Positions 5,709 to 52,649 of a stretch of DNA of 64,000 nt are shown piece by piece (positions within the stretch are counted from its first letter, which is position 1; the number at the start of each line of letters is the position of its first letter). This DNA is from Prorocentrum cordatum (taxonomy: Eukaryota), in the NCBI GenBank assembly GCA_963575745.1, contig CAUYUJ010000314.1:186001-250000 (forward strand), read 5' to 3'. Position numbers and translations under genes: made by a program. The notes under the pieces are model-generated. The model had not been told where the DNA came from, did no database searches, and saw only the letters and a list, made by a program, of their open reading frames with translations.

Positions 5709-5808
5709 NNNNNNNNNNNNNNNNNNNNNNNNNNNNNNNNNNNNNNNNNNNNNNNNNNNNNNNNNNNNNNNNNNNNNNNNNNNNNNNNNNNNNNNNNNNN
5801 NNNNNNNN
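5709..5808. other. Assembly gap (100 N)
   Basis: N run. Confidence 1.
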
Positions 5809-7400
5809 TTCCATATGACTGACTTAAGCAAGGCGTCTAACATCATGACGTCACGCTACGTATACAAATGGAAGTTTGTCAAGAACGAAAAGGGCGAAAT
5901 GGAAAGGACGATCAGGTTACGCTTGGTACTCCGTGGCTTCATGGACCTTGAAGCCTTTGATGTCGAAACCTTCTCTGCACGGCAAGGAGGTCAAGCCAGA
6001 GACTGCTCGCAAGTTCTGCTGCATGCAACAAAGCTTGGATCATCGCTTCCCTGGACATCAACATGGCTTTCTTGAAGGGACTGACCTATGGCGAGCTCGC
6101 CGCGGCAACGGGCGAGAAAGTACGTGTGGTGTGTTTCACACTACCACCTGGGTCAGCAGCTGTCCTTCGCACACTGCCAGGCTTTGAGTCATATGACGAA
6201 TCAAAGCATTGTCTCCGGTGTCTGAAACCGGGGACGGGCACGAAGGATGCTCCCAGGGCATTCTCGCTGAAGCTCAGGTCCATCACTAGGAGCTTTGGGC
6301 CACAGCCTACTTCATACGACGAAGAGTTCGAGATGAGCCCAAACCTCTTGACAGCCAAGCACGTTGATGACATCAATATGACTGGGAAGGAAGAGGCTAT
6401 TGACAAGTATGTCAAGTGTGTTGAAGATACGTTTGGGAAGTGCAAACTGAACAAGCACACATTCACAAACTGTGCCGTTCGGTATAACAAGACCGATGAT
6501 GGAGCGTCACTCTTGATCAGGACGAATACATCAAACAGCTTCGTCCTATCACACATCCAGAACTCACAGGAGCTGATCCTGAGAGCAAAGCGACAAAGAC
6601 GATTTCTGATATGTTCGTCAGTCTTCGTGGCGCTCTAGCCTATGCGTTGATCACGCAGGTATGGCTGATGGTCTATGTTGTCTCACTACAACGTATCCAG
6701 GAACCGACAAACATTCAGGTACGACGACTAAACGCGGTTACCAGAAAGCTACAGGCAGGTCCGAAGAAGATCGTGTATCAAGCTATGACCCCAACAGGAG
6801 AAGTCGACCTGCATAGCGATTCTGGCTATCGTCGTCTCAACGGAGATGAAGACGACGAAGTCAAAGGCTATGGTATCCGCGGGGCTAACCTGCTGAGGCG
6901 TGGCCACACACAAGCGGGGAAACCCGTCGTGCACCTGGTGGACGCATACTGCAAGTCTCATCGACTGCAAGTGCGTTCGAGCTACTCTGCGGAAACACTG
7001 GCAGCAGCCCACAACTTGGAAGACTGCTACCCGACCATTGTAACGCTCCACGAGCTACACTCGGGACCATTGACCCCCACACAGTTAAAGAACATATTGG
7101 TAATGGGTGGTCTATGTATCAAAGTCACTCTGACTATTGATGCCGAGTCTGTCTTCAAGTCTTTGTCTAGCAAAGATCTGAAGAAGCCCACAGAATGTAC
7201 TCTGCTTGGGCATATCAGCTGGATCCGCAGATGATGGAACGCGGAATCGTGGAAAGCGTCCAATGGTGTGACACGCGGGATATGACTGCCGACGGTCATA
7301 CCAAAGGTAGTATTGACCGCGCGTTGCTCCTACAAGTAATGGCCGGCCAGCAATCCTTCAAGCACGAGCTGAAGAAACATACGCCGTATAGGGCGGGCAG
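5809..7400 (+). mobile_element. Ty1/Copia pol 3' part (RT + RNase H), frameshifted, 5' end lost in the gap
   Basis: SRYVYKWK...IRLRLVLRGFMD; AFLKG; LKPGTGTKDAPRAF; HVDD (6360-6371); RNase H motifs LHSDSG, RSSYSAETLAA, IDAESVF, WCDTRDMTADGHTKG, spread over ORFs 5815, 6063, 6611 and 7195. Confidence 0.92.
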
Positions 7401-7641
7401 GTCGTCTCAGGACGGCCTTGCCTCCCGAGCCAGCGGGGAAACCCGCGGGCAGGTGCGCTTTAGTAGCGAGGAAACTCGCCGGTAGCGAGGCTACTCGCGC
7501 GCCCTTTCCTTGTAGGCAGCCGCTGCTGCTTAGCACTGTTTTTCCGCATAATGTAGAAGTGCGGTACCTGCTCGTCTCCTCCCCCTCCGACTTTAAACGG
7601 AAAAGGTTAAAGGCGAGGTATAAATCGAGCATGTACCGCTG

Positions 7642-7659
7642 CCGTGCCTGGCTCAAGCC
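7642..7659 (+). other. SL-like motif in the 3' non-coding (putative LTR) region of the Copia element
   Basis: CCGTGCCTGGCTCAAGCC, nearly the same as the SL variant CCGTAGCCTGGCTCAAGCC at 26629; TATAAA at 7619-7624. Confidence 0.45.
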
Positions 7660-8381
7660 GGGCCCGGCCAAATATATGACTGTGCCTCACTGAGGCGCAC
7701 GACTTGCATCAGAGATCGGAAAATACCTTTTCCATTGACGAAGCCCATCCTATCCTTTACTCCAGATCCCATGCTTCGTCTTGCACTCTTGCTCATGCGA
7801 TATGAGCCAAAGCCTGGGATATGGCAACGCTTAAAGCGTAACACATACCTAAGCTTACCAGCTTGTTTTCGACTAGACTCCGCCCCCTTCTGTTCAGCGA
7901 CAGGATCTTGGCCCCACAGGGGCCTCGGACGCGCGCCCGCCGCGAAGGGGCAGGGCCCATGCGGCTCTCTCTGGGGGCCTGTAAAACTCTCATCGAGACA
8001 CGTGCTTGAGATGGATCGGTCGCGGCTGCCCGCACAAGCAAGTGCCAGATACAGGCTGGGCTATATAGCCGCCTTCGCCCCCCCCCCCCCCCCCCCCCCC
8101 CCCCGGAGGATTACACTTAAAGGTGCGGCTCTTAGTTGGGCAGCTGAGCCCTGCTAGCTTTAAATGTTGCTGCTGTGCTATGGTTAGTTGGGTGTTGCCC
8201 ATGCCTGTCGCTTCGTGTCCGAATGTAGTTGCTGCGTAGACGCTTATGTTGCAGACCTTCCCCTGGCGTCTTTTCCTGCCGCCCCGATGCGGTTGGGGTT
8301 GCAAAGGTAGCGCACGACGTGGCGCCGCCGTGTGGAAACATGCCAGATTTGACGGTGTAGGTTTAGCGTGTGGACGAGCAC

Positions 8382-8403
8382 TCCGTTCCATATCTGGCTC
8401 AAG
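8382..8403 (+). other. Degenerate spliced-leader relic
   Basis: TCCGTTCCATATCTGGCTCAAG: 22 nt, with 5' TCCGT and 3' TGGCTCAAG matching the dinoflagellate SL. Confidence 0.65.
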
Positions 8404-8417
8404 CTCGAAAAGCATTT

Positions 8418-8507
8418 CGGAGGAGAGCTGCTGCCGCAGTTGGTAGCGGAGCGGGTTGCCCCGGAGGAGAGCTGCTGCCGCAGTTGGTAGCGGAGCGGGT
8501 TGCCCCG
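8418..8507. repeat. Perfect 44-bp tandem duplication
   Basis: cggaggagagctgctgccgcagttggtagcggagcgggttgccc x2. Confidence 0.95.
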
Positions 8508-8599
8508 CTGAACGGCCCACGGGGGCCTAGGCGAGGCGCCGTGCGGCGGCCTGCCTCCCGGCTCTCCCGCGCCCTTGGCGAGGGCCCGGCTCTGGGGTC

Positions 8600-10740
8600 C
8601 GACAGGCGTGGCATCCGCGGCATGCCCGAGGAGGGCGATGACGACAAGGACGCGTCGCTGGCAGTGGTTCCAGGAGCGAGCCCAGCAGCGGCAGCAGCAG
8701 CGACTTCGTCAACGGGGGCTACAGCGACGCCGGGGATCACGACCGAACAGCTGGCGGAGCTAGTGAGAAGCGTAGTCTGGGAGACTACGGGGGCACCAGC
8801 GGCGCCAGTGACAGTGGCGACCCCGAGAGCAGAGACAGCAGCAGACCGCGAGACCGATCCTTGGCACCGAGGCTGCGACCCCTGGAAGAAGAACATTGCC
8901 GGCAGCACTGCCGGCTACCAGGCAGCAGCTCCCGTGACAGACGGCGAGGACGATCACCCGAAGAAATCGAACACCAATTCGTGGCAGGAGTCTGGGTGGC
9001 ATAATTGGTCGAGCGGCGGTGATTACCCATGGTGGCGAGATGATTGGCGTCAGCCGTCCTGGTCAGGTTGTGGCAGAGGTGACTTCTCGGATCCACCAGT
9101 CTGGCCCAGGTGGAGTCATTATCGTCAGTGGCTCCCGAAGTTTACGACGTCGGGAAACCAAAACAGACGTGACAGTGCGGCGCCGATCAGAGAAATTCCT
9201 CAAGCTGTTTGGCTGGAACATGCAAGCCCGATTAGATGATATGAACGAGATCGTGCTGACGGGTAAGGGCTGGATCGACGCTGTGCTACAGAGAATGGAC
9301 ATGATGATTGGCGAAAGGGAGGGCGACGACCTTGGCGCGCTGGCCGCAAGGCACTGTTCGAGGCGGTCGGAGAGCCCAACGAGTTATTCAGTACGTCAGC
9401 AGGCAGGAGGCCCAACCCACGGAAGCAGAAGGCAACGATATGTGGCTCTCGACGAGGCTGGAGGGCTTTCTTCTCGAGGAGGGCGCCGGCCTCACGGCCC
9501 AAGGCATGCAGAAATTCCGTACCCTCACCCAGGGGCGCCTAGAATACCAGAGCGTGGCCTGGGCCCTGAGATAGACTCGGCAGGATCTGAGTGGCTGCTT
9601 CCAGGTAGGACACCTGCCAGTTCGATGTCCGCGGCCCTTGGCACGACGGACGAAGGTCTCGGCCATGCCGACCAGTCTGCTCCCTCCTCCTCTTTTCCCC
9701 CGGTTCGGTCGGAGGCTGAAGGTGGTTCGGAGGGGAATGACGAGTCTGAGTATGACGAAATGTTAGGAAATCCGTCAAGAGGGAGACGAGGCCGCCCTGA
9801 TGGCAAATATCGAGGACTCGGACTTGTGCGAGGACCAGATCGACGGTGCCTTGGCCATGATTGCGAGCCGTCCGACGGGCAGGACATGGAATCACATCAC
9901 GGATATCAAACGTGCCGCCTAGAAAGATCGGGGGTACTACGGCGGCCGAGGAGCAGCATCGCCGTCGGCGCGTGCTTTTCCAGACAACCGGCAAGGTCTT
10001 GAAGGTCGCGGTGATCGAGGCGACCGGGTTCGACAGCGTCCGAGACTCACCATCGAGCAGCAATTGAAAATCACCAAGTGCAGCACCTGTCGCCAGAAGG
10101 TCACTGGAGCCGCGGGTGTCCGAATAATCGCAGCGCGGACGCGGCCCAGGGCAGAGGGGGCGACGACCGTCAGGGATTGTCCGCGTGCTCTTTCATCGGG
10201 TTCGAGGGCCAGGAGGACTGCCGTGCCCGGGCGACCCTGGAGGCGAAGGACGCCTGGCGAGGTCTGCAGGAGGAGATCACGACAGACAGCAACTTCCTGA
10301 TCACCAAGACGACGCAGGCTCTGGTGGACCTGTGAGCTGGGGGCGATCTCGTCGGCGTCCAAGCCCTGAGCGGGGAGGCGGCGGCGCTGGCACATCTCGG
10401 GCTCCAGTGCGTGGAGATGCCGACGCAGTGCCGCAAGCAATGTGCTGCCCATGGCGCGAATATTACCGCTGCTGTTTTGTTTCCGCTGTTGGGCGGGGTG
10501 CTCGTCGAGACCGCCGTCCTGGCGGGCGACGATCCGCGCGTCCTGAGCGTGAGTCTGCTAGACTTCTTGGCCTGCGTCCCGGGCCCCTCGGCCAATGACG
10601 CGAAGCTGGGGGCCCTGCGCGCAGTCGCGAGGGTGGGCAAGCTCAGCCCGGGCCACCGCGTGGCAGATATCGCGCGGCCTCTGCGGCGCTCAGTGTCTGT
10701 TCTGAGCTCGTCCCTCCAGCGCCGTCCGTTTTAAAAGCAG
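8600..10740 (+). mobile_element. Decayed Copia-type gag-protease
   Basis: W-rich N-terminal region and DPPVWPRWSHYRQW; gag-like helical segments across frameshifts; CCHC knuckle CSTCRQK/GHWSRGC (10079-10119, one frameshift); ALVD protease-like motif near 10320 followed by VLAGDDPRVLSVSLL. Confidence 0.75.
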
Positions 10741-12299
10741 GACTCGTTTGAGTTCGCCGGGGGCCGAGTCACGGAGATGCCAGACGCCCTCCTCTTCCTT
10801 GTCCCGTGCCTCATCGCCTTCAGAATCGGGTGGTCGACGCCAAGTCGAGATTTTGGGCGCGACTCGTTCCGAGCAGTGGCCGACAGTAGGACGAGTTATT
10901 CGTTGAAGGCGTTGAGGGCTCTGAAGGACCTCGAGAGGGGGCTGGTCTGCGCGTTCATCTGGCCCCTCAGGTCACAGGCCCAGACTGCCGGCGCAAGATC
11001 GCGGGTCGAGGCTCCAGTGCCGCCGGAGCATGCTAAGTTGCCCAACGCATTGGGGGAGACGGGCCTTCTGGGAACTCTGCAGATCCCCGCGGCTCCTCCC
11101 TCATCCTGGTGGGCTTCGTCGCTGTGAGTTGTCTGACCGCGGCCCATTTGAGCTCGAAGTTCTCAGGGGTAAATTCAGCCTCTCACGCTCAGTCTCCCGA
11201 CTTGCTACGCGTCTCAGTTCGGCACGAACATGAGGTTAATCTCAGTGGCCGCCACCTTGACGACGGCGCTGACGGTGCCAGGAGCAGCAGCTCCGGGCAA
11301 TAACGCCAGGAAGCCAGTGTCTCACGAGGCCGCGCAGGAGGTGCCGCGGCGGCTTCGCAGCATTCAGAAAGCGACCATGAAAACGGACGGCGGGAGCGCC
11401 GACCAAGGCGCGGCCGGGAGCGTGACTCCGTCGGGCACGTTACCGCCAATCGAGGGGGGTGCCCTAGGTTGGGCACGGCAGGCAGCGGCAGCGCCGACGC
11501 TGCTTTTAGCGGCGAGTCCGCCGACCGTCCCGGGACCACCGAGGAAGCAGCCGCCGCCAAAGTTAGATCCGAGGGCGGTGCCGCCCACGCTTCAGGCGCT
11601 GCAGCCGAGCGGGCCTCCGAGGACGCCGCCGCCTGTCCCAGACTGTCCGCGTGCAGGCGAGAGGACCGAGGCCGGGCCCAAGGTGTTGTCCCCGGTGGCT
11701 CCACCACGATTATGGGCAGCTGTCCTACGGACCCTGGGGAACGGGTGACTCGCTGCCAGGCGCTGGCCCAGCGGCCCCAGTTGCGGGTTTCGCGCGACGG
11801 GGCCCCTGGCTTGAGCGCGGCCGTATCTCCAGCAGCCAGCCGGGCGGAGTTCCTTATTTTGGACCAGCCGCCCTGCCAGCGCCCGCGCGCGGAGTTGACG
11901 GCTGCGCGCTTTGCGGGTGGGTGCGGTGTACAAGCTGCACGATTGGTGGCGACACGCCGCGCGGCATATGGCGGCCATAGCGCAGGAGGTCGTGCACCAA
12001 GCCGTCCAGGACCTCGTGGCAGGGCACTCCGGGGCCATCGGGGTGCTGGACAGAGCTGGCTTCCAGGCCCGCTGAACTTGCAGCGGCGCCCGCGGGGCTT
12101 CGTCGCAATGGCCTCGCCGCACGCGGGCGGTTCATCACCTTCTACTTCCGCTTCGCCCACGCAGTCTCCTTCCTCGTCCTTCTTTACGCCGTTCCCCCCC
12201 CCCCCCGCATATCAACTTCACCGTCATCATCAGCAGCACCAGTGCCAGCAGCACGCATTTTGAGCAGCAAGTACCAGCGAGCAGTTCCGATGCTTCCGG

Positions 12300-12590
12300 A
12301 GGGTGGTGATGATGAAGGTAATGATGTTGCTGATGGTGCTGATGCTGAGCTGGTGATGATGGTGATGGTGCTGCTGCTGCTGATGCTGATGCTGATGATG
12401 ATGTGGAAGAGGACAGGTATGATGCTGACATCGAAGCTAGTGGTGATGACATCACGACGGTGATGGTATCATGAGGATGACACTTGTGTTGCTGATGATG
12501 ATGCTGCTGATGATGATGATGATGATGTTGATGATGATGGCTATGACGAGCCTGACTACGAATATGACAACGATTACGAGTATGACCATG
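12300..12590. repeat. (GAT)n degenerate microsatellite
   Basis: Seen directly. Confidence 0.9.
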
Positions 12591-12874
12591 CTTACAAGTA
12601 TGAGCACGGTCGAGCATCTGATACAGAAACCTCCCTCCGAACAGCTGGGCCAGCGTTTTTTTGCCAACTTGCCAGAACGTTCACCCAGTTTCTTGGGCAC
12701 GCTCGCTTCTTCAGGGTCAACAAAGTGGCCCAGGGCTGCTCTAAGAAACGTCTGGGAAACTGGCCCATATTTCTTAAACGTCAATCTTTTTGATGAGCTG
12801 TATGACTACAGATCTGACTGTGAATGTGAGCATGTGTAACATGTGTTTGATGAGGAGGACGATGAGGATCAGGA

Positions 12875-13200
12875 TGCGGGAGGCAGGTGGCAGAAGGCAG
12901 GAAACCAAAGGCCAGGAGGCGGGTGGCCGGGAGGCAGAAGGCCAGGCGGCAGGAGGCCGGGAGGCAGCAGGCAGGAGGCCGGGAGGAGCAGCAGCAGCAG
13001 CAGCAGCGGCGGCAGCAGCAGCAGCAAAAGCAGCAGCAGCAGCCGGAGGAGGCAGGAAGCGGCCAGATGTGGCAGGAGGAGGGTGCGGAGGAGGCAGGAG
13101 GCAGGAGGCAGCAGGAGGCAGCAGGAGGGCAGGAGGGCAGGAGGGCAGGAGGGCAGGAGGCAGCAGCAGCAGCAGGAGGAGGCGGGAGGCGGCAGGTGCC
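12875..13200. repeat. (GGAGGCA)/(GCA)n low-complexity repeat
   Basis: Seen directly. Confidence 0.85.
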
Positions 13201-13850
13201 TGCTGCAGGTCGGCGGTCGCTTGGGCGGGCCTCGGGCCCCGGGCCGGCGTGCCGCCCGTCTCCGAGCACGGACGTCTCTCGCGAGCTCGACGCCGCGGCC
13301 CTCGCGGGCTCGAGGCCTCGCGGCCGTCGAGCGGCGACGCACGCTGGGCACACCTGCGACTGTCGTGGGAGCGAGTTTTCTGTTCTGGACGTTCTTGGCT
13401 TCACTCGGGGCCTGTTTTTGTCGCCGCCTCGGCGATGACGGGCGCTGCCGGGGGGGAGAAGGGGGGGGGGAAAGGGCTGGTAGCGTCACGATTCGGGCCG
13501 CGCCGTCTGGGCATCAGGCACCCCTGGCCATTCCCAGATGGGGCAGGCGCGAATCGTGACGTTCCCGGGGGGGCTGGGGGGGGGGCGGGGAGGGCGGGGG
13601 GGGTGGGACGTCCCCGGTCATATCATTGGCGCTATTGCCACAATCGTTGACACGGGCGCTCTTTGGCTTCAGGAGGCCCACGGGAGCTTTCGGCTGGACC
13701 CTTGACCTCCTGGCGCTTCAGGGGCCTCCGGCTCCTTCGCCGCCACGGCTGGCACGCAGCTCGGAAAAGACGCCGGGACGAAACCTAGGCGAGGTCGGGG
13801 GACCCGTTCCGAGCGGATGCCGCCCACGCCTCCAGTGCCACGGAATAACA

Positions 13851-14056
13851 TCGGGGGAGCGTAAGACCCGGGTTTGCCAGGACTCGGGTTCGCCATCGTT
13901 TTTTGACGACCGCGCCTCGGATTTTGACGAGGAGGAGTTTCGTGGGGTGTCTGCAGCGGGAGGCCTCGTCAAAATGCAGGCTCGGCCTCGTCATTTTTTT
14001 GACGACCTCGTCGGGGATTTCCGAGTCCCCCGTACCCGGGTCTTACGTCTCCCCGA
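13851..14056. mobile_element. 206-bp MITE, family M2, 5-bp TSD TAACA
   Basis: TIRs tcgggggagcgtaagacccggg / cccggggtcttacgtctccccga; TAACA at 13846-13850 and 14057-14061; internal TTTTGACGA motif repeated. Confidence 0.85.
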
Positions 14057-14197
14057 TAACAATGCGTTTTTCTGTTTCTTTTTTCAGTTTTTCCCAACCC
14101 TCCTCGGTTGGGTATCCGTTTCAAATCGAGCACCGCGGTGGCGTCTCCCTCCTTCTCCTACCGCCTCCCGCCTCCGCCTGCCCTCTCCTCGCCGTTC

Positions 14198-14884
14198 CTG
14201 GGGGGCTGCGATCTGCGAGACTGTCGCCACTTTCGAGGGCTGCTGGTGGGTCCAGCGGAGTGAGGCACCGCGCGGACTTGAGGTAGGCCTCGCCATCCCT
14301 GGGGGTCTGCGATCTGCGAAACTGTCGCCACTTTCGAGGGCTGCTGGTGGGTCCAGCGATGCACCGCGCGGACTTGAGGTAGGCCTCGCCGTCCCTGGGG
14401 GGCTGCGATCTGCGAAACTGTCGCCACTTTCGAGGGCTGCTGGTGGGTCCAGCGATGCACCGCGCGGACTTGAGGTAGGCCTCGCCGTCCCTGGGGGGCT
14501 GCGATCTGCGAAACTGTCGCCACTTTCGAGGGCTGCTGGTGGGTCCAGCGATGCACCGCGCGGACTTGAGGTAGGCCTCGCCGTCCCTGGGGGGCTGCGA
14601 TCTGCGAAACTGTCGCCACTTTCGAGGGCTGCTGGTGGGTCCAGCGATGCACCGCGCGGACTTGAGGTAGGCCTCGCCGTCCCTGGGGGGCTGCGATCTG
14701 CGAAACTGTCGCCACTTTCGAGGGCTGCTGGAGGGTCCAGCGATGCACCGCGCGGATTTGAGGTAGGCCTCGCCGTCCCTGGGGGCTGCGATCTGCGAAA
14801 CTGTCGCCACTTTCGAGGGCTGCTGGAGGGTCCAGCGGAGTGAGGCATCGCGCAGACCTGAGCGGGACTTCGCCGTCCCTGGGC
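14198..14884. repeat. 96-bp tandem array, about 7 near-identical units
   Basis: Unit gcaccgcgcggacttgaggtaggcctcgccgtccctggggggctgcgatctgcgaaactgtcgccactttcgagggctgctggtgggtccagcgat; translates as a 32-aa repeat. Confidence 0.97.
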
Positions 14885-16074
14885 GGCCATGTCATGTTGT
14901 TGCTGCCCCGCCGACGTTTCGAGCCCCTTGCGCACAGTCTCCTTTTGGGACCTTGCGTCTTCCTTAGTGACTCAGGGGCTTACTTAGTTACTAATCGTTT
15001 TTCCCTTGATTGGGGACCTGCGAACCTTCCGACCACCGCTCGCAGAGGTATATGCGTCCATGTCACGTCGCCGCCTTCTCGTCAAATCTTCGAAGCTACT
15101 CCTGCCCCGGATTGCGCAGGGGTTGGGTACGTCGCAAAGGTAATTGCACTCTGGCAGCCTGTCTCTGGCACCCTAGGTGCCCTTTCGGTTCGCAGGGCCG
15201 TCATAAAACGTCTCGGGATGAAGAACTGGTCGTTAGGGTGGGGTCCACAGGTACGGGGGCCCGCGTCGCGAAAGCACCGCACCGGATCACTCTGACTACG
15301 ACGGCCAAGTGAGAAGAGGAGGAGGAGGAGGAGGAGGAGGAGGAGGAGGAGGAGAAGGAGAAGGAGGAGGAGGAGGAGGAGGAGGAGGAGGAGGCAGGAG
15401 GTAGGAGGCAGCAATGGGAGGAGGCCGGAGCAGGAGAGGGGGGAGAAGGAGTGCAATGATGAGAAGGAGCACAATGGGGAGGAGGAGAAGGAGGAGGAGG
15501 AGGCAGGAGGGAGCTTCTCCTCCTGCTGCCACAGCGGCCAAGCGAGGTTGGCTTAGGCCCTGCTATCTCCCTGCGTTCGTTGCCAGTTCGCGCAGGGGAC
15601 GAAACGCCAGGACAGCGGATCTGAGGGGTTCTCCAGGGGAGAAGCTACGCTGCCACCGCACTTAGTGAAGCCACGCCGCGCGTCTCCGGGCCATGGTTTG
15701 CCGAATGCGGGCGCCAGTAGAACAGTCGGCCGATTTTTGCCATCATCTGGATGCTAGAGTCGGCGTATGCGGGGGAGCGCCCAGTTTTCAGCCAGCTCTG
15801 GGGCCCTCGGAGGGCCCCGAGGCCTTGTTGTGTCTTTGCTGCGTCGCCGAAGCTGCTCGAGGCCTGTCGGCTTCCACGTCGCTGTCGGGTCTGCCAGTTG
15901 TCGGTTGCATTGTCGCCGTGGATGGCCTTGCATCGCAACGATCCTCCTTCTCCTCCTTCTGCTCCTCTTCCTCCTGCTCCTCCTCCTGCTGCTCCTCCTG
16001 CTGCTGCTCCCCCTCCCCCTCCTCCGCTCCACGGGTGCGATTTTCGCCTTCTCGTCTCGGCGGTCTATGCGTTG

Positions 16075-17060
16075 GCTCTATGACTAGTGCCCTATGATGT
16101 CTGTGGTGGTTGCGATTTTCGCGTTCCTGTCCTTGTGCTTTGTGGGTGGTGCTCAATAGTGTGTGCCCTAGGATGCCTCTGATGATTGCGTTTCACACAT
16201 TATGGCCCTGGTGCATGGGTTGTGCCTTATGGCTGGTGCCATACGATGCCTTTGATGGTAGCGATTTTTGTAGTATTGCCCGGGTGCTCATTGTATTGCG
16301 CTCTACGATACCTCTGATGGTTGCGCTTTACGCGTTCTGGACTGTGTGGCCTGTGGGTGGTGCTCTATGGCTGGTGCCCTATGATGCTTCGGATGGTTGC
16401 GGTTTTCGCGTTCTGGCCCTGGTGCGCTGAGTGATGCTGTGTGGCTGGTGTCTTGTGACGTCTGTGGTGATTGCGATTTTTCGCGATCTTGCCCCTGCTC
16501 CTTAAGGATCGTTCTGGGTGGCGCTCTATGGCTGGTGCTTTGTGTGATGTCTTGGTTGTTTTGATTGTCGCGTTCTTGCCCTGGTGCACCATGGGTTGTG
16601 CTTTGTGGCTGGTGCCCTGTGGCGTTTCTGCATTGTACGGTTTTTTCGTAATCGCCCTTGTGCCCAATGGGTTGTGATCTATGGCCGGTGCCCTATGACG
16701 TCTCTGACGGTGAGGATTTTCGACCTCATGTGGTCTTTATGGGTGGTGCTCTTGGGCTGGTGCCCTATGGTGCCTTTGATGATCACGCTTTTCTTTCTTG
16801 CATGGTGCCCATGTGTGGTCGTTGATTAATGTTGTCCATTGCGTCTTGGAGGGTTGTGATTTCCTCGTCCTTGTCATGATTGCTTATGGGTGGTGCTCCA
16901 TGGTGACCTGTGATGTCTTGGATGGCTGAGTTTTTCGCGTTCTTGCCCTTGCGCCCTGTGGGAACTGCTTTACGATAGGTGCCTCATGATACCTTTGATG
17001 TTTGCGGTTTTCGCATTCCTGGCCACCCGTGGGTGGTGTTGGTCTATGGTTGATGCACAT
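16075..17060. repeat. Old degenerate ~75-bp tandem array
   Basis: Recurring tatggctggtgccctatgatg...ttgcg(a/g)ttttcgcgttc at ~16079, 16228, 16366, 16441, 16527, 16605, 16680, 16753. Confidence 0.85.
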
Positions 17061-17315
17061 CGCGTGTTCAAAAAAATCCGGGTTGGCGTCCATGTTGACA
17101 GTCATGTCTCTCTGTGCTGCAGAACAGGTCCGTGTGTACTGGAACCCGTTCTCGACTCCCTCCTCGCATCTCCTTGCTCACGCCTTCATTCCCATTGGAC
17201 GCTCATTAGCTTCAGTGGCGCCAACAGAATACAAACAAACCTTGTGACCAGCGACCGGGTTGTCGACACGAGATCCGACTGGACTTCCTGAACAGCTCAC
17301 GTTATGCTGTCATCG

Positions 17316-17336
17316 TCCGTAATCGTTTGGCTCAAG
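17316..17336 (+). other. Spliced-leader relic upstream of an intronless gene
   Basis: TCCGTAATCGTTTGGCTCAAG versus DCCGTAGCCATTTTGGCTCAAG; about 75 nt before the ATG at 17411. Confidence 0.85.
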
Positions 17337-17410
17337 TGGCTGAAGTCTGCAGACAGGGGGGCAGCGCCGCGCGCTTTCGAGCAACCATTGCCAGCTTCCG
17401 TACCCCGACC

Positions 17411-19666
17411 ATGCGTTGCATCTTCATCGCCCTACTCCTCGCAAATGTAGCCGCCGCGGCGCACGCGGAAGGTCCGAGCGGCCCAAATCTCACGGAGTGG
17501 GAAGAGGGCCAGGCCAATGCGTCGGCGGCTGCGGGCGCCGTGGCCGCCAAGCAGGCCAAGATGGCCGCCGTGGACAAGATCGTCACCATGCTGTCGGACT
17601 TGCAGGCGAAGGTGATCAGCGAGGGCGAGACCGAGGCCAAGACCTACAGCGAGTTCGCGTGCTTCTGCAAGGACACCATTAGCGAGAAAACCGCGGCGAT
17701 CAAGGCAGGGGAGGACGACAAGGCGAGCCTCGAGGCCGCGATTGCGGAGGGCGCGGCACTCCGCGACGAGCTCGACACCACAATCGCGACGCTGGTCGAG
17801 ACCATCGAGGAGGCCCACGCCAATGTCACGAAGGCGAAGGAGATTCGCGCCCAGGAGCTCGCCCTGTACAAGGCACAGGCGGCCGATGTTGAGGCCGGTC
17901 TCATCGGGCTGGAGGGCGCGATCAAGGCTTTGAAAGCCTCGAAGAAGCCAGCCTTCGTGCAGTTGCAGGGGGTTGCCAAAACGGTGCGTACAGCAGCGCT
18001 CATAGCCGACTCGCTGGGGCTCATGAAGGGTTCGGCCGCAGGGCCTATCAGCGCGTTCTTGCAGGAGGAGCCTGAGGTGCCTTTCGAGAACTACAAGTTT
18101 CACTCATCAGACATCATCAGTACCCTTGAGGAGCTGGAAAGGTCGTTCAAGGATACCAAGATCAATTTGGATTCTTCTGAGAAGGCGAGCCTTCAGGGAC
18201 ACACCATGTACCTCCAGTCGATGGCTGCCAAAATCAAGGACCTTAACCTCGACCTGGATGCCACCAAGGTCAAAAAGGCGGACACGATTGCTAAGATCAA
18301 GGCAGACAGCGAGAATCTGTCCACTGTCGCTGCGAAGCTGCTTGATGATCAGCAGTACTTGGAGACGCTTGCCCAGATGTGCAAGGACAAGAAGAAAACC
18401 TGGGACCAGCGCTCCAGCACGCGTGCCGACGAGCTGTACACCATCACGCAGGTCATCGGGATCATAGAGGGCGCTGTCAGCAACAAGACCCGTGCGGCGA
18501 CCGTGCGATTCAACCAGGTTGGCGTGAGCCTGAGAATCGCAAACGCCGTCGCCATGGACAGGTCTGCGATGGAGGCGGTTGAAGCCGAAGCAGAGGCTGC
18601 GGAGGAGGGTCAGCCGGTCGCGTTTCTGCAGCGCGTCAGCGTTCGGAGGCACCTCGGCGGGGAACCCGTGGAGGATGGCCGCGAGGTTGTGGTATCATTG
18701 CTCAAGTCGAAGGGCCAGCAGCTAAAGAGCCAGGTTCTCGCTTCGCTTGTCGCCCAGATCTCCGCGGTGCATGGCGACGACCCCTTCGCGAAGATCAAGA
18801 CGCTCATCCAGGAGCTCATCGAACGCCTCCTGCAGGAGGCCTCCAACGAGGCGAACCAGAAAGGCTGGTGTGACAAGGCCACCTCCGCGGCCACGCAGAA
18901 GCGCGACTACTCCGTGGAGGAAATCCGGTCCCTGAATGCTGAGATGGCCGAGCTGGAAGCCTTACGTGACAAGCTCGCCGAGGAGTTGTCTGTGCTCGCA
19001 GACGAGATCGCTGAGTTGGTGGCCAACCGGAAGAAAGCGGAAGAGATTCGCACCAAGGAGAAGGGAGAGAACGAGTTCACCATCGCAGAGGCGGAGGCTG
19101 GTCTTGAGGCCATCAACCAGGCCATGGACATCCTAGACAAGTGGTACAAGACGAATGTCAAGAACGAGGTCTCGTTGGCACAGCAGGGTCCTGAGAAGGA
19201 TGCGCCCGACGCGGGCTTCGATAATTTCGAAGCTTACAAGGGTGCACAGGCCGAGTCGGGCGGCATCATTGGAATGATGGAGGTCATCGCCTCAGACTTC
19301 AGCAGAACCATCACCGAGACTCAGAAGGCGGAGGCCGCGGCGGAGGACGAACACATGGAATTCATGACTGAGACAGGCAAGTCTCTGGGGGAGAAGAAGG
19401 CGATCGAGGCGCAGACGACCACTGAGAAGGACAACGCCGTTGAGGACTTGGAGGCCGCGAGTGACAAGCTGCAGTCCAACAACGATATCTTGCAGGCATC
19501 CATCACCGAGCTGATCGAGCTCAAGGCCGCGTGCATCGACACTGGCATGAGCTACAGCGACCGCGTGGCTAATCGCGAGGACGAGATCGAGGCTCTCAAA
19601 AAGGCCCTGTGCATCCTCGGCGCTTATGAGAAGTACGGCCCAGATGGAGCCCGCGACGCGTGCTGA
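17411..19666 (+). CDS. Secreted, internally duplicated coiled-coil precursor protein (751 aa); candidate extrusome/trichocyst matrix-type protein
   Basis: Uninterrupted ORF with strong GC3 bias; signal peptide MRCIFIALLLANVAAAAHA; two homologous halves with conserved Cys (FACFCKD / KGWCDK; LAQMCKD / LKAACID); AFVQ/AFLQ linker motifs. Confidence 0.92.
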   Translation: MRCIFIALLLANVAAAAHAEGPSGPNLTEWEEGQANASAAAGAVAAKQAKMAAVDKIVTMLSDLQAKVISEGETEAKTYSEFACFCKDTISEKTAAIKAGEDDKASLEAAIAEGAALRDELDTTIATLVETIEEAHANVTKAKEIRAQELALYKAQAADVEAGLIGLEGAIKALKASKKPAFVQLQGVAKTVRTAALIADSLGLMKGSAAGPISAFLQEEPEVPFENYKFHSSDIISTLEELERSFKDTKINLDSSEKASLQGHTMYLQSMAAKIKDLNLDLDATKVKKADTIAKIKADSENLSTVAAKLLDDQQYLETLAQMCKDKKKTWDQRSSTRADELYTITQVIGIIEGAVSNKTRAATVRFNQVGVSLRIANAVAMDRSAMEAVEAEAEAAEEGQPVAFLQRVSVRRHLGGEPVEDGREVVVSLLKSKGQQLKSQVLASLVAQISAVHGDDPFAKIKTLIQELIERLLQEASNEANQKGWCDKATSAATQKRDYSVEEIRSLNAEMAELEALRDKLAEELSVLADEIAELVANRKKAEEIRTKEKGENEFTIAEAEAGLEAINQAMDILDKWYKTNVKNEVSLAQQGPEKDAPDAGFDNFEAYKGAQAESGGIIGMMEVIASDFSRTITETQKAEAAAEDEHMEFMTETGKSLGEKKAIEAQTTTEKDNAVEDLEAASDKLQSNNDILQASITELIELKAACIDTGMSYSDRVANREDEIEALKKALCILGAYEKYGPDGARDAC

Positions 19667-20499: not shown

Positions 20500-20980
20500 C
20501 GCTTACCTATCTATCTTTCTATCCATCTTACATATATAAATAGGTACATCTATCCACACATACATAACTGTATCTTTCGATACATAGATATAGCGACATG
20601 TATATCACATAGATCTATATCTATTATAACCTTCTCATTTCTGTATATATGCATATATATACACACCTATCCATACCATCAGGGCACACATCGCATGACG
20701 CAGCTACACATATACACATTTCACATTACATACCTATGTACCTCATATGTTTGTATGCATATATGTCTTTATACCGATCATTAGTTACATGAGCATGTTT
20801 TATATAGGCATGTTCGTACATCCAGATTTGTATATTCACATATGTTTATCCATCTATCTACCGATATTTAATTACACTTATAAGCTATCAATCGACGTAT
20901 ACATATGTATATATATATATATGTCACGTTCAGTACATCTGTATATCTATGTATATATATATATATATATATGTATGTAT
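20500..20980. repeat. AT-rich (TA/TATC/TACA)n degenerate microsatellite
   Basis: Seen directly. Confidence 0.9.
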
Positions 20981-21886
20981 CGGAGGTTGGGGGGTGTGTC
21001 CGACGTGAAACGGAGACCCCCCCCTACCGGGAAATCGATTTCGGTTTCGGGTTCGTGTCGTGCGTGCCGTGCGTGCGTGCGTGCGGGCGAGGCGAAGCTG
21101 CGTGGGCGGGCGAGAGGAAATCCTTCTGTGGCTGGGCCGCGGCCGGACCAAATGATTCTCCTCCGGCGGCCGGTGGCGCGCGGTGTCCCGCTGGTGTCCC
21201 GCTGGTGTCCCGAAATCCTCCTGTGGCTGGGCCGCGGCCGGACCAAATGATGCTCCTCCTGTCAAACGGTGTCCCGCGGTGTCCCGCTGGTGTCCCGCCG
21301 TGGGCTGCGCATTTTAAAAAATCGCCGCTTGCGGCGAGCCATCCAATGCAAGTCTGCATGCAAACCGACATGCAGACCGACAAGCACATCGAAATGCAAA
21401 TCGATTTGCACATCCAAATGCAAATCGTAAGGCGCCGTGGGCGCCGCGGCGAGCTTTCCAATGCACGTCGACATGCACATCGAAAAGCAAATCGAAATGC
21501 ACATCGATATGCAAATCCAAATGCAAATCGGAAGGCACATCGCAGGCGCCGCTGGCACCAAGCTTTGCTCGTGCCTCGAGCGCCGGACCTGCAACCAAGG
21601 CAGCATCGGGTGGCGCCGCGATCAGTCACTGTTGCACCGCAGCACGCACGTTCGACCACGTCGACTAGCGCTGAGGTGAGGTTCGCGCGATTGATTAGCG
21701 CACGCGGGGACAGCGGTTGACGACAATGTTAAGTGCGCTTCGCCAATGTCGCCACATCACATCACGCTCAAGTGCACAATCACTCTACTCACGAGACTCC
21801 GCCCCACAGGCATTGTCAGAACAATATCACCAGTTTTGCCCATGCCCCCCAACCTCCTTATCACCCGCAGGGTGGTCGTATAGGTA
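20979..21886 (+). mobile_element. Composite Helentron/DINE-like element, family H1 copy 1
   Basis: Perfect 13-bp subTIR GGAGGTTGGGGGG (20982-20994) / CCCCCCAACCTCC (21845-21857), then hairpin CACCC-GCA-GGGTG (21862-21874) and tail GTCGTATAGGTA; internal short repeats. Confidence 0.75.
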
Positions 21887-21892
21887 ATGACA

Positions 21893-22640
21893 TACATCGG
21901 AGGTGAGGGGGTGAGATCGAAGTGGAACGGAGAGCCCCCCTACCGGGAAATCGATTTCTGTTTCGTGTTCGTGCGTGCCGTGCGGGCGAGGCGAAGCTGC
22001 GTGGGCGGGCGAGAAGAAAGTCTCCTGTGGCTGAGGCGCGGCCGGACCAAATGTCTCCCTTCCGGGCGGCCGGTGGCCCGCGTTGTCCCGCCGGTGTCCC
22101 GCTGGTGTCCCGTGTGGCTGAGGCGCGGCCGGACCAAATGTCTCCCTTCCGGGCGGCCGGTGTCCCGCGGTGTCCCGCCGGTGTCCCGCGGTGTCCCGCG
22201 GTGTCCCGCGGTGCCCCGCGGTGTCCCGCGATGATGATGATGATGCTGATGATGATGTTGATGATGATGTTGATGATGATGATGATGATGATGATGCTGG
22301 TGATGCTGATGATGATGCTGCTGATGATGCTGATGATGATGTTGATGTTCATGATGATGATGGTGGTGATGCTGATGATGATGATGCTGCTGATGATGAG
22401 GACGATGATGATGATGATGATGATGAGCATCGAGTGAGATCGAGTGTGACATAGATCGAGTGAGATCGAGTGAGATCGATTGTGAGATCGATTGTGAGAT
22501 CGATCGAGGGAGACCGATCGAGCGAGACCGATACTGAGATCGATAGTGAGATCGATAGTGAGACCGATCGAGTGAGACGTTGGTTCCCCCCCCCCGAACC
22601 TCCTTATCACTATCACCCGAAGGGTGGTCGTATAGGTATC
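21893..22640 (+). mobile_element. Family H1 copy 2 (head-to-tail with copy 1)
   Basis: Same ~300-bp head, (GGTGTCCCGC)n, (GAT)n, (GATCGAGTGA)n, CCCCGAACCTCC, hairpin CACCC-GAA-GGGTG (22614-22626). Confidence 0.8.
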
Positions 22641-23178
22641 TATCTATATATCTGCCTACTTACCTACCTACTTACCTACCTACGTACCTATCTGTCTACC
22701 TCCTGCCTGCCTCCTGCCTCTGCTCCCTCATGCTCGGGTGCCACGACCCGTGCCACCGTGGCGGCTTCCGTGTGCTCTTGGGGGGCCCAGTGTAGCGGTG
22801 TCATGCGCAGGCCCAGTTGCGCAGCTGTGGCGACTTTGGTGCGCGCCTGGGGCCTGGCGGAGTGACAGACGCCCTACGCAGGCTCAGATGGGACCCCGCT
22901 CTTCCCTTGGTGCCGCTGGCTGCGCAGCTGTCGCCATATCCGTGTGCTCCTGGGAGGTCTCCATTCCTTTTGGCCCCATCCTTCTGTTGCATCACTCGTA
23001 TTATCTGGTCTCTGAACTTCTTTCCTTCTCTTGGTCATCGCTGTTTTGCCGTCTTTTCCGCTTCATGCCATATTCTACGGTGCTGCCTCATATTTGTTCG
23101 TGAGGCGTGCAACGCGTATGCCCCATTTTGCAGACTGCTCAGAGGATTGCGTTCCTTGTAATATTTTCACCGGGTCGG

Positions 23179-23825
23179 GATACCTATACGACCACCCTTC
23201 GGGTGATAAGGAGGTTCGGGGGGGGGAGGATGCAGCGTCTCACTCGATCGGTCTCACTATCCATCTCACTATCGGTCTCGCTCGATCGATTTCACTCGAT
23301 CGATCTCACAATCGATCTCACTCGATCTATCTCATTCGCTCGGTCTCACAATTGATCTGATTATCGATCTCACAATCGATCCCACATTCGGTCTCACTAT
23401 CGATCTCACTACTGGTATCACAATCGATCTAACATTCAACGTCATCATCATCAACAACAACACCACCATCTCCATCGTCATCGGGACACTGTCATCTTCA
23501 CATCATCATCGTCGCCATCATCATCAACGCCATCATCATCAGGCCATTATCATCAACGCCATCATCATCTCATCATAGTCATCATCATCATCATCGGGAC
23601 ACAGCCATCGTCATCATCACCATCAACATCATCATCATCGGGACACCATCATGGTCACCATCATTTTCATCGTCAGCATCATCAACAACAACATCGGGGC
23701 ACCATCATCATCATCAGCTCATTATCATCATCAACATCATCAGCAGTATCATCATCACCAACATCATCATCAATATCATCATCGGCACACCATTACCATC
23801 ACCATCATCATCACCACCGTCATAG

Positions 23826-23884
<59 letters not shown>

Positions 23885-23968
23885 GGGAGACCATAATCAT
23901 CATCAGCACCATCATTACCAACATCATCATCAACAACAACTGGCAGAAGCATTATCATCATCGTCATC

Positions 23969-24019
<51 letters not shown>

Positions 24020-24509
24020 ACAACATCAACATACTCATCATCACCAGGACACCATCATCGTCATCATCACCACCATCAACATAACCATCATGATAATCAT
24101 CAACAACATCATTATCGGGACACCGACGGGACACCGACGGGACACCGGCGGGAAACCGCGGGCCCAGAAGGGAATCATTTGGTCCGGCCGCGCCTCAGCC
24201 ACACGGGACACCGACGGGACACCGGCGGGACACCGCGGGCCCCCGGCCGCCCGGAAGGGAGTCATTTGGTCCGGCCGCGCCTCAGCCACACGGGACACCA
24301 GCGGGACACCGGCGGGACACCGCGGGCCCCCGGCCGCCCGGAAGGGAGACATTTGGTCCGGCCGCGCCTCAGCCACAGGAGACTTTCTCTCGCCCGCCCA
24401 CGCAGCTTCGCCTCGCCCGCACGGCACGCACGAACACGAAACCGAAATCGACTTCCCGGTAAGGGGGCTCTCCGTTCCACTTCGATCTCACCCCCTCACC
24501 TCCGATGTA
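23179..24509 (-). mobile_element. Family H1 copy 3 (inverted)
   Basis: Reverse complement of the copy 2 architecture: hairpin 23193-23205, (TCACTCGATC)n, (CAT)n, head block 24120-24509. Confidence 0.85.
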
Positions 24510-25344
24510 CATTGATGGATGCAGTTCGTTCGCATCAGTCAGGTTTTTCATATTGCATTTCTTCGGTATCTCTGTCAAAAATCTTTCTTTCTCGTGCATC
24601 TTGACTCGCGCAATAGCACCTCTGGTGTGCTGGATGTGGTAGTCGGGTGGTGCACAGAGGGGGCGGAGCAGGCGTGGACGAGGAGGACGAGGGGGAGGAG
24701 GAGGACGAGCAAGGGGACGATGATGTGGCTTCTGATGGTGGCTGTGATGATGGTGAGGGCGATGAGGAAGCGAGGCGGAGGATCCGAGGCGCAGATGCGG
24801 CGCAGAGGAGTACGCGGAGTGAGGAGGGTGAGGACGGTGGGCGAGGATCGCAGGCCAATCTGGGCCCGACCGATCGCTGCGCCGGGCCGCATCACCAGGG
24901 CGGCGCGCGCGCCCGAGGTAAGGGCGCCAAGACGGAGTTCGTTGCGTGCACACAGGCTTCCTCTCCCCTCTGCCTCTGTCCTCCGTCTCTGTCCCTCTCC
25001 CCCTCTGGCGCTCCCTCCCAGTCTCGCCCTCTCTCTCTCTCTCTCCTGCCCCCTCTCTCTCTCTGAGCTGCTGAGCTGTATGCGAGACCGCCCTCGGAGA
25101 GGTCAGCGCTGGCGTGCCCAGGGATCTCGGAGCTGGCCCAGCGGTGATCCAGCCGCTCGCCGGGTCCAGGGGCCGAGAAGCTCCCGAGCTGGCCATGGCC
25201 AGGCGCCAAGGGCGGCCCGCGGGCGCGCGCGGCGCTGCCTGCGTCTCGGTTCCCGGTTCGATGCCTCGATGCGTGTCAGTTGCCCCCCTCCCCACACGGG
25301 CCCTCGGAGTGGCAGGAGCTCCGTACTCCTCCTCCTCCCAGGGC

Positions 25345-25569: not shown

Positions 25570-26626
<1,057 letters not shown>

Positions 26627-26627
26627 G

Positions 26628-26659
26628 TCCGTAGCCTGGCTCAAGCCATTTGGCTCAAG
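26628..26659 (+). other. Tandem (double) spliced-leader relic
   Basis: TCCGTAGCC-TGGCTCAAG followed by CCATTTGGCTCAAG. Confidence 0.92.
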
Positions 26660-28130
26660 GCCGTTTTCTCCAGCCAGGGCCGCCGCGCGCCGGGCCGCCC
26701 TCCGCGCGCATGCAGGCCTCCTCGGGGCTGAAGGGGACCAGCGTTGGTCTCTGCGGCTTGAGGCGACGCCATCAGCGTCGTAACACCGAGGTCTACTTCA
26801 TCGAGCTCTTCCTCATCGCCCTTGGGTGGTGCATGGGAGCGAGGCTCGACTTCTTGGTGCCGTACCAGTACGTCGGAGGTGACCTGGGCCTGAGGATCCA
26901 TGAGTTCGTCAGGCGCGGCGAGTGGGACAATGTCCGCATCCCAATACTGGGGGAGCCTTGGTCCGCCACCTTCCCCATCGCCGGGCAACTGGGATTCTCC
27001 GGAGGTGGTGCTCGACACGGAGACGCTCGTGCTGAGAGCTACAGCTCCCTTGACGGGCACAATACCGATGCCGCCAGCGCCACCTTCTCCAGCGTTCAGG
27101 CCGATCAAGATGCTCAAGCGCTGGAAGAAAATCAGCCCAGAGATGCAGGTCAGCGACGCCAAGGAGCAGAAGAAAACATTTGTACTCAGCCACACGGCGC
27201 ACAAACGCAGGAAGCGCAAGGATAAGTTCGCCAAAGTCAGGGACGGCACCACCGAGGGTTCTGGGGAGCGGCCAGGCCCTCGCGGCTGCGTCGAATACTT
27301 CATTGGCGACCTCTCCATCAACGGGGACGGGGACGGCGATCATGGTTAACATCGGCGACATGAAGGCGCCTCTGCCTCCGCTCCCCATGATGATGAAGGA
27401 GGAGGGGGGCCCTCGCCCCGTTGCGCGGGAGTGGATCTAAGCCGGTCCCTAAGCGTTGCGTTTGAGGGGGGAGGGATTGGGCTCGTCCCGCCTGGCATTC
27501 TGCACCTCGTAGAGGAGAAGACCAGGCCTACCATGGTTTGCAAGAGTCACGGCTTCAATGTCGACGCAAAGACGTTCATGCCAGCAGATCAGTACACACG
27601 TTGGAGGAGGTCACCGATCGAGAGCGGCGTCGAGGGCGAGTTCGAGCCCACTTTCGACGACATCATCAATGGCAAGTTCGACAATTCGGAGGGCATTGTC
27701 CCGCCCGCCATCAGCAACACCGAGGAGTACTTCCAGCCCTCCTTCGCGGGCGACTTCGCGCCCATCCTGAAGAGTGACACCGAGGGCGACTTCCAGCCCC
27801 TTTCCAAGAATGACTTCGAGGACAACCTCGAGCCCACCTTCAACTTCGACGCCGAGGGGCTCGCCACGGGCGGCACTGCGGACCGCTTTGCGTCCGACGT
27901 GGAGGTCTTCGGCGACCCCGACAAAAAGGGCCACATCGGGCCCGAGCAGGGCGGGAAGAGGCAGTACACGGAGGACCAGCTCGCGACCCTGGGCACTGAT
28001 CGTTTGGCGGTCCGGAGGCGCTTGGGCTACATAGCTTGAAGAAGATCGGCACGGCCTCCATGTACATCATAGGTCGTTGCATTGACTACTTCATCAACGT
28101 GGAGAATAATTTCGAGCCATTTTCGGTTCA
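26660..28130 (+). pseudogene. Fragmented retro-copied coding sequence downstream of SL relics, with a PAM2-like motif and acidic repeats
   Basis: Coding-like GC3 bias over ORFs 26650, 26900, 27180 and 27431 in shifting frames; FNVDAKTFMP at 27554-27583; EG(D/E)F(E/Q)P repeats at 27630-27860. Confidence 0.55.
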
Positions 28131-43590: not shown

Positions 43591-43636
43591 GCGCCAGGAG
43601 CCGAGGCTTTGGTTGTTCGGGAGTACCACACTCAGT

Positions 43637-49117: not shown

Positions 49118-49167
<50 letters not shown>

Positions 49168-49539: not shown

Positions 49540-51600
<2,061 letters not shown>

Positions 51601-52585: not shown

Positions 52586-52649
<64 letters not shown>

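Follow-up and report, generated by a model that had tools for sequence, protein, structure and literature searches.

HINE elements have been described as carrying subterminal inverted repeats (subTIRs) of 12-15 bp, at distances of 2-4 nt (5') and ~38-60 nt (3') from the element ends, a palindrome of 5-10 bp located 8-35 nt from the 3' end, and frequent microsatellites or tandem repeats, and they insert at T^T targets in T-rich DNA, which are left unmodified (PMC4067079). In DINE-1, the 5' side of a further inverted repeat lies within the 5' subTIR, and the element also contains a microsatellite, a core, and central repeats (PMC4067079). These modules recur in the oyster element Cg_HINE, whose left flank carries 4-nt microsatellites and whose central repeats differ per element (PMC7492417). 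In the classification used by HELIANO, HLE2 is characterized by T-T insertion and by inverted repeats of 12-16 nt, the right one of which is followed by a 3' stem-loop, and HLE1 by a 5' TC, a hairpin with CTRR, and A-T insertion (PMC11417382). A Helitron2-like RepHel (Rep-helicase) of Symbiodinium microadriaticum, CAE7237458.1, has been placed outside the Helitron2/Helentron split (PMC8788227). Here, we describe a repeat family present as three copies, c1, c2, and c3, in a 64,000-nt stretch of contig CAUYUJ010000314.1 (the window, in which all positions are given unless a metagenome locus, labeled L001 etc., is named).

We consider it probable, at roughly 0.65 and judging from sequence features, that this family is a high-copy non-autonomous DNA transposon moving by a Helitron-like rolling-circle route. 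A rolling-circle non-autonomous family of Helentron/DINE-1-like identity had been proposed for this region in a first-pass annotation. The dispersal of the family, its lack of coding capacity, and its HINE-like anatomy bear the proposal out in part, and each structural module matches the published HINE measures; the target differs from the T^T of HINE, and the mechanism is one that we infer, because no Rep/helicase partner was found.

Three copies share a head and a tail

Reading of positions 20500-25000 together with alignment confirmed three copies with a common head and tail. Copy c1 occupies 20980-21884 (+, 905 nt) and is followed by TA at 21885-21886, c2 occupies 21897-22636 (+, 740 nt) and is followed by TA at 22637-22638, and the inverted c3 extends from 24505 to 23183 (-, 1323 nt), followed by TA at 23181-23182. 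These ends were set by the family-wide onset and end of similarity, with the tail end of c2 and both ends of c3 resting on the window and the metagenome loci only. The copies had thus been located correctly in the first pass, while 4 of the 6 ends given there were 1-4 nt too wide. The head-to-tail arrangement of c1 and c2 is likewise seen in the sequence, but the refined ends place them 10-12 nt apart instead of the ~6 nt first estimated. Also upheld were the perfect 13-bp subTIR of c1 (20982-20994/21845-21857), the hairpin loops (GCA for c1, GAA for the other two copies), and the difference in cargo between the copies, whose tandem-repeat content varies.

Approximately 300 nt of the head are common to c1, c2, and c3, with 80% identity between c1 and c2 over 323 nt and 83% between c2 and c3 over ~550 nt, gaps included. 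All three heads open with TCGGAGGT(TG/GA)GGGGG, and all three tails contain a C-run, (A/G)AACCTCC, TTAT, CACCC-GNA-GGGTG, and GTCGTATAGG, followed by TA. As signatures, the tail can be written as CCAACCTCCTTAT + 13 nt + GTCGTATAGG, and the head as TCGGAGGT..GGGGG less than ~130 nt from GCGGGCGAGGCGAAGCTGCG. A blastn search with word size 7 revealed no other head or tail copies in the remaining 60 kb of the window.

Dispersal and abundance

JGI metagenome contigs were scanned for exact matches to the 23-letter hairpin-to-end pattern, with the middle loop letter left free. This identified 25 contigs of freshwater and marine origin, with a G+C content of 0.30-0.70. Viral contigs yielded 0 matches, and prokaryote genome contigs a single one, in a metagenome-assembled genome (MAG) of Sphingomonadales. 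Including the MAG contig and the window, 30 tails at 24 distinct sites were obtained, in which similarity halts at ATAGG and the downstream sequence is unrelated from site to site and often TA-rich. The 16 letters upstream of the fixed pattern read CCCCCAACCTCCTTAT in 12 of 22 merged groups, with close variants elsewhere, and the last 41 letters of c1 are identical in six metagenome contigs. Heads are also present on six of the tail-bearing contigs. In the alignment of 8 heads, similarity begins at an invariant A, followed by TC in 6/8 and by TG and GC in the others. Seven of the 8 full heads comprise the 13-bp repeat, a C-run arm able to pair, ACCGGGA(A/G)(A/G)TCG, TTCG-like and CGTG microsatellites, and the core GCGGGCGAGGCGAAGCTGCG; the head of L021 is without the stretch between the repeat and ACCGGGA, C-run arm included.

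Furthermore, Logan contigs of the runs X1, X2, X3, and X24 were mapped at 80% likeness on positions 20600-22235 (1636 nt), a stretch that stops before the long (GAT)n arrays, and 2213, 675, 509, and 432 contigs, respectively, were placed on it. Summed word depth is not a copy number, and only the contrast between parts of the stretch and the loose ends of contigs were used; uncovered parts of the stretch and runs with small shares were not counted as evidence. For X1, summed depth was 0-1.5 in the 5' flank, 2283-17120 in the c1 head, 9-140 in the c1 interior, and 12953-38910 from the c1 tail through the c2 head, and the profiles of X2 and X3 had the same shape. For X24, a depth of at least 10^3 was reached on the tail and on the opening ~130 nt of the head, the ~90-bp central units were uncovered, part of the c1 12-mer arrays was at 0.9-17.5, and the c2 10-mers were at 16.7-81.8. 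Loose ends behind 21886 were found in 62 (X1), 34 (X24), and 6 (X3) contigs, with heterogeneous continuations (agreement 0.37-0.51). On the other side, matching starts at 21845, the first C of the tail, in 50, 17, 8, and 25 contigs (X1, X2, X3, and X24) and at 21896, the A before the TC of c2, in 17 (X1) and 4 (X3) contigs.

Metagenome contigs and loose ends therefore agree that head and tail co-occur at sharp boundaries, the point on which the first-pass annotation had staked its proposal. We regard it as practically certain that this is a real, dispersed, and very abundant mobile family.

Some of the loci show unusual arrangements. At positions 1-60 of L001, only TA lies between a tail and the head that follows it (..GTCGTATAGG TA TCGGAGG..); this precise junction and the near-tandem arrangement of c1 and c2 fit either read-through concatemers or insertion beside an existing 3' end. 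L023 (minus strand, 1450-1840), and also L017 and L024, harbor two tails 288 nt apart with the same ~70 nt before each, and the sequence after the first tail is common to five other contigs. This double tail may be a local duplication of a tail-bearing unit or reflect nested truncated copies. A 5'-truncated copy, starting at the inner C-run arm and containing a (GAGAAGAAT)n array, lies in L016 (minus strand, 340-990), embedded in a GGTAAT/GATGAT minisatellite. Finally, the contig from the Sphingomonadales MAG (L026, VHBC01000063.1, 1044 nt) is 99.9% identical to L015 and L017, eukaryote-like lake contigs with the element, and its assignment to the MAG is probably a binning error.

Anatomy of the elements

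The family structure begins with a 5' TC and a 13-bp subTIR with a nested second repeat arm, which are followed by short microsatellites, the conserved core, and variable tandem repeats; its 3' part consists of an inverted repeat, the CACCC-GNA-GGGTG hairpin, and ten letters ending in ATAGG. The corresponding features of the three copies are as follows.

20982-20994 (+): 5' subTIR of c1, GGAGGTTGGGGGG, 2 nt from the 5' end and kept in 8/8 heads
21017-21028 (+): inner arm of c1, CCCCCCCCTACC, pairing with part of the 5' subTIR in a predicted stem
21040-21118 (+): head of c1 with short TTCG-like and CGTG microsatellites, then the core GCGGGCGAGGCGAAGCTGCG (from sequence and head alignment)
21119-21302 (+): central repeats of c1, two ~90-bp units ending in GGTGTCCCG 10-11-mers
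21358-21542 (+): 12-mer minisatellites of c1, ATGCAAATCGAA type
21845-21857 (+): 3' subTIR of c1, CCCCCCAACCTCC, start of the conserved tail
21862-21874 (+): 3' hairpin of c1, CACCC-GCA-GGGTG
21875-21884 (+): terminal ten letters of c1, GTCGTATAGG, the 3' end of the element
21899-21911 and 22591-22603 (+): subTIRs of c2, with arms matching at 11/13 positions
22026-22230 (+): central repeats of c2, an 87-bp unit twice and CGGTGTCCCG seven times
22230-22426 (+): (GAT)n microsatellite of c2, ~66 units (~200 nt)
22424-22578 (+): 10-12-mer minisatellite of c2, TGAGATCGAG type
22614-22626 (+): hairpin of c2, loop GAA
23193-23205 (-): hairpin of c3, loop GAA
23210-23222 (-): 3' subTIR of c3, with arms matching at 11/13 positions
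23238-23430 (-): 10-12-mer minisatellite of c3, TGAGATCGAG type
23492-24116 (-): (GAT)n of c3, ~625 nt
24116-24377 (-): 87-bp unit of c3, three times
24491-24503 (-): 5' subTIR of c3

The subTIRs are thus placed asymmetrically, at distances of 2 nt (5') and 40 nt (3') from the element ends, with 27 conserved nt outside the 3' repeat, and the 3' arm is kept at 24/24 sites with small variants. The termini themselves (TCGGAGG... and ...GTCGTATAGG) are not inverted repeats of each other. The 5' stem with the inner arm is predicted with z scores of -1.49 in c1 and -2.61 in L001 and is not significant in c2 and L005. Copy c1 represents a subfamily with ~90-bp units, 12-mer minisatellites, and an interior that includes ~300 nt of non-repetitive sequence; this interior is covered by contigs of X1-X3 at a summed depth of 9-140 and resembles L018. 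Copy c3 belongs to the same subfamily as c2, with longer arrays, and CGGTGTCCCG 10-11-mers are present in both.

The hairpin lies 4 nt after the 3' repeat and 10 nt from the end, and a 5-bp stem with a 3-letter loop is predicted for c1-c3; in c2, a 6-nt TATCAC duplication precedes it. At the 24 sites, the middle loop letter is C in 13 cases, A in 7, T in 4, and G in none. Two variants that were not forced by the search were found, an A-to-G exchange in the stem, after which pairing is retained as G-T, and a loop of four letters accompanied by an altered terminal letter. The end GTATAGG occurs at 30/30 tails, and while this stretch was fixed by the pattern, the three window copies show the same independently. 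DNA mini-hairpins of the GCGNAGC type have been reported to be extraordinarily stable (PMC13037366).

Target site and flanks

The flanks of the elements are TA-rich. The letter before the 5' end is A in 8/8 heads, with TA preceding 4/8 and CA or AA the other 4/8, and ATAGG is followed by TA at 22/24 sites. Four of the 6 complete elements lack an abutting direct repeat of at least 3 nt, and for the other 2, embedded in (TA)n, the comparison is uninformative. In L005 and L019, reading the ends as A|TC...AGG|TA puts the (TA)n on both sides of the element in one phase, which fits insertion at an A^T step. The absence of a target-site duplication (TSD) stated in the first pass thus stands, in that no consistent target duplication was seen among the six complete elements, 2 of them in (TA)n, and its expectation that poly-A would be lacking was confirmed at the tails. 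The comparison of ends suggested there did fix shared termini; the target it yields, A^T(A), is unlike the T^T of HINE.

Comparison with Helitron-like elements

Like HINE, DINE-1, and Cg_HINE as described, the family is non-coding and has 13-bp subTIRs 2 nt (5') and ~40 nt (3') from its ends. It further shares with this group a DINE-1-like second arm nested with the 5' subTIR, a palindrome after the 3' repeat (5 bp, 10 nt from the end), 4-nt microsatellites of the left flank as in Cg_HINE, subfamily-specific central repeats, the lack of a TSD, and a very high copy number. HINE hosts are animals, whereas this family has a probable dinoflagellate host and no known Helentron partner (Rep-helicase-endonuclease). 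With HLE1, the family has in common the 5' TC (6/8), A/T insertion, the lack of a TSD, and a short hairpin ~10-11 nt before the 3' end; it differs in its 13-bp subTIRs, of which the HLE1 description has none, and in its 5-bp stem, compared to an HLE1 palindrome of 16-20 nt. The Phytophthora proto-Helentron/HLE2-reverse elements similarly combine an HLE2-type protein or repeats with Helitron-like ends, and A^T insertion has been reported for them (PMC4067079, PMC11417382), but the proto-Helentron is a long coding element. The S. microadriaticum element is alike in its dinoflagellate host and its position on the Helitron2/Helentron side and represents the sole candidate partner type found in print (PMC8788227).

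On these sequence comparisons, the family would work like HINE, as a variant with mixed termini. It is not filed as a strict HINE member, because T^T is not its target, its 5' TC and A-T flanks are HLE1-like, and it ends in TAGG instead of CTRR. In the literature searched, with Repbase and supplements outside the search, the head and tail strings were not found and no HINE-type family in dinoflagellates was described.

Proposed mechanism and points against it

In the proposed Helitron-like route, a Rep/helicase encoded elsewhere would nick the top strand at A|TC, beside the 5' subterminal repeat, and the strand would be unwound through the cargo. The 3' subterminal repeat and CACCC-GNA-GGGTG would be read as a stop, with the cut made ten letters on, after ATAGG, and the freed single strand would be inserted at an A^T(A) step in TA-rich DNA, without duplication of the target. 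The required parts would be only ~130 nt of head and ~41 nt of tail, so the interior would be free to slip, expand, and be swapped, and each subfamily could carry its own microsatellites and tandem repeats, copying them round the genome.

Several observations weigh against this reading. A Rep/HUH-helicase open reading frame (ORF), which the first-pass annotation had suggested searching for, was not found by Pfam in 94 ORFs of the window (4 plus 90 stop-to-stop ORFs of at least 130 aa in which the four commonest residues make up less than half; 142/235 were dropped as low complexity) nor in 43 ORFs of the metagenome loci (the longest of 157), a search that split or short exons would escape, and no coding copy between these ends was seen. 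The Pfam matches obtained were limited to a long interspersed nuclear element (LINE) and a faint Copia fragment in the window, both outside the elements, and to two protein kinases beside elements on the loci, one of which, on L004, has a weak organism-named match, with 43% identity to a Symbiodinium natans protein; this is a faint pointer to the hosts of the metagenome contigs. In addition, HINEs insert at T^T in T-rich DNA, whereas here TC follows A (8/8) and the 3' end is followed by TA (22/24), and the TAGG end does not correspond to the CTRR of HLE1. TA follows ATAGG so regularly that it may belong to the element itself or be the remaining half of a TA duplication that has degraded. The folding energy of the tails (51-61 nt, nearest-neighbor) does not stand out from shuffles (z +0.13 to +0.74), although standard energy tables may not credit the stability of GNA loops. 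Moreover, the stem and the loop letters G and A were fixed by the search pattern, and their constancy in the metagenome set is therefore no evidence. Lastly, no empty site was seen, and none of the joints listed skips c1.

Alternative explanations

Some of these points are shared with the explanation that we consider unlikely, yet take most seriously, namely that the family is mobile by another mechanism, using a different HUH-type enzyme or an undescribed transposase, and that its likeness to HINE is convergent. No Rep/helicase partner was found among the 94 window and 43 locus ORFs, neither HLE1 nor HLE2 fully matches the target and termini, and TA is constant at the 3' side (22/24) and not at the 5' side (4/8), as in elements inserting beside a short target word. 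Against convergence, each structural module has a HINE/DINE-1 counterpart at matching distances. We know of no other eukaryotic superfamily that combines subTIRs, a 3' hairpin, and the lack of a TSD. That a Helitron2-like RepHel exists in dinoflagellates (PMC8788227) also argues for the Helitron-like route.

The TA letters, the TA-rich insertion sites, and the inverted repeats could alternatively be explained by a cut-and-paste miniature inverted-repeat transposable element that duplicates TA (of the Tc1/mariner type or similar) and whose transposase would bind the 13-bp repeats. We judge this improbable: while TA follows the 3' end at 22/24 sites, it precedes the 5' end in only 4/8 heads, the remaining 4/8 being preceded by CA or AA. 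Furthermore, the ends are strongly asymmetric, in that 2 nt lie outside the 5' repeat whereas the 3' side has 27 conserved nt, among them the hairpin, and the true termini are not inverted repeats.

We consider it very improbable that the family is a short interspersed nuclear element (SINE)-like retroposon mobilized by a LINE, for instance that at 42761-48604, through recognition of the hairpin tail, even though this LINE-like ORF has an endonuclease domain and a reverse-transcriptase zinc finger and many 3' flanks start with TA-rich simple sequence. No head or tail match was found elsewhere in the window, the 3' end of the LINE included. ARAGORN identified no tRNA genes, and Rfam yielded 0 matches at the gathering score and, at E<=1, 29 sub-threshold matches, all on TA or GAT repeats; head and tail thus have neither a tRNA nor an Rfam match, and they lack poly-A and variable-length TSDs. 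Head depth equals tail depth, without a 5'-truncation gradient, and only 1/9 elements is 5'-truncated.

Local tandem or inverted duplication of a satellite-rich, immobile block, which would suit the clustering of the three copies in 3.5 kb and their absence from the remaining 60 kb, is refuted by thousands of contigs from four runs and 25 metagenome contigs with the same ends, unrelated flanks, and different interiors.

A more far-reaching version of the Helitron-like reading is doubtful when taken as a whole: the family would be the non-coding arm of a dinoflagellate Helitron-like lineage that stands between canonical Helitrons (5' TC and A^T target) and Helitron2/Helentrons (subterminal repeats and 3' stem-loop), would rank with the most abundant repeats of several plankton genomes, would have spread recently from host to host, and would be subject to intron splicing. 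An end of ~41 nt that is nearly unchanged across contigs of 30-70% G+C, from lakes and seas, would point to recent spread between hosts. With regard to splicing, the ends read ..GGAG|GT.. (GTGAG in c2 and c3) and ..TATAG|G.., and copies in genes could be removed by splicing in the manner of introns, with 7 or 9 letters left behind. Introns that stem from Helitrons and from many other transposons have been described, and they abound in dinoflagellates (PMC12130899).

Tandem-repeat cargo

Tandem arrays were present in 9/9 elements with visible interiors, and their types differ across subfamilies, including (GAT)n, (GA)n, (CATT)n/(GAAT)n, 9-, 11-, and 12-mers, and units of 29-105 bp. Contigs of X1 and X2 that leave c2 after CGGTGTCCCG run into (GAT)n (loose ends at 22113 and 22200). 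The word GTGTCCCG punctuates the arrays of c2 and c3, and 26/27 of its occurrences in the window lie inside the three copies. Other large (GAT)n/(ATC)n arrays of hundreds of nt each are located at 1-2000, 26001-27000, 49001-53000, and 61001-63000, and neither family ends nor GTGTCCCG were found at any of these. The suggestion that the family spreads the microsatellites that dominate the window is therefore supported for the arrays inside the copies and not supported for the other large (GAT)n arrays. We regard the family as one carrier of microsatellites and do not claim it as the source of those in the window, where the other (GAT)n/(ATC)n arrays may be coding sequence or microsatellites of separate origin.

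Subfamilies that are otherwise unrelated (c2/c3 arrays and L001, 220-900) have a further recurring word, GGTGTCCC/GGGACACC, in their central repeats; it punctuates the (GAT)n of c3 and makes up palindromic GTGTCCCGGGACAC units in L001. This word may be a conserved internal site.

Significance

Dinoflagellate and plankton genomes are huge and laden with repeats that are poorly classified, and a signature of ~130 nt of head and ~41 nt of tail would help to annotate a large class of DNA recorded as simple repeats. The family would also provide a concrete example of how tandem repeats are copied round these genomes, as shown for the HINEs of oyster and Drosophila. The mixed termini, with a Helitron-like target and 5' end and Helentron-like repeats, bear on the divergence of the two Helitron-like branches, and a tail that is nearly identical on very different contigs prompts the question whether the family has spread horizontally. 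While the basic picture of transposon biology is unchanged, and a known kind is extended to a new host group with a changed target, the abundance of the family, its near-invariant end signal across plankton contigs, and its mixed Helitron/Helentron termini deserve note.

Neighboring features

The LINE-like ORF at 42761-48604 (+) encodes 1947 aa with an Exo_endo_phos match (E 1.1e-06) and a zf-RVT match below the cut-off (Pfam). Its Atlas neighbors are RVT_1/Exo_endo_phos clusters, no taxa being listed there for the ORF, and its 3' end is without the family tail.

Near the beginning of the window, a 100-N assembly gap (5709-5808) adjoins a faint Copia-type RVT_2 fragment at 5961-6635 (E 9.4e-05, below the cut-off).

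The ORF at 17210-19663 (+), located 1.3 kb upstream of c1, is intronless, encodes 818 aa, and belongs to a large conserved family (PF27870). It has 208 homologs at E<=1e-5; among those listed are five MMETSP transcript entries and many contigs of ~2.3-2.5 kb, and the two organism-named matches among them are from Prorocentrum cordatum (57% identity) and Protoceratium reticulatum, both dinoflagellates, which makes it likely that the window has a dinoflagellate host. A 21-letter dinoflagellate spliced-leader motif had 0 matches with up to 3 mismatches allowed, a result that says nothing either way about the host. Some sources call relatives of this protein coiled-coil or chromosome-segregation ATPase-like.

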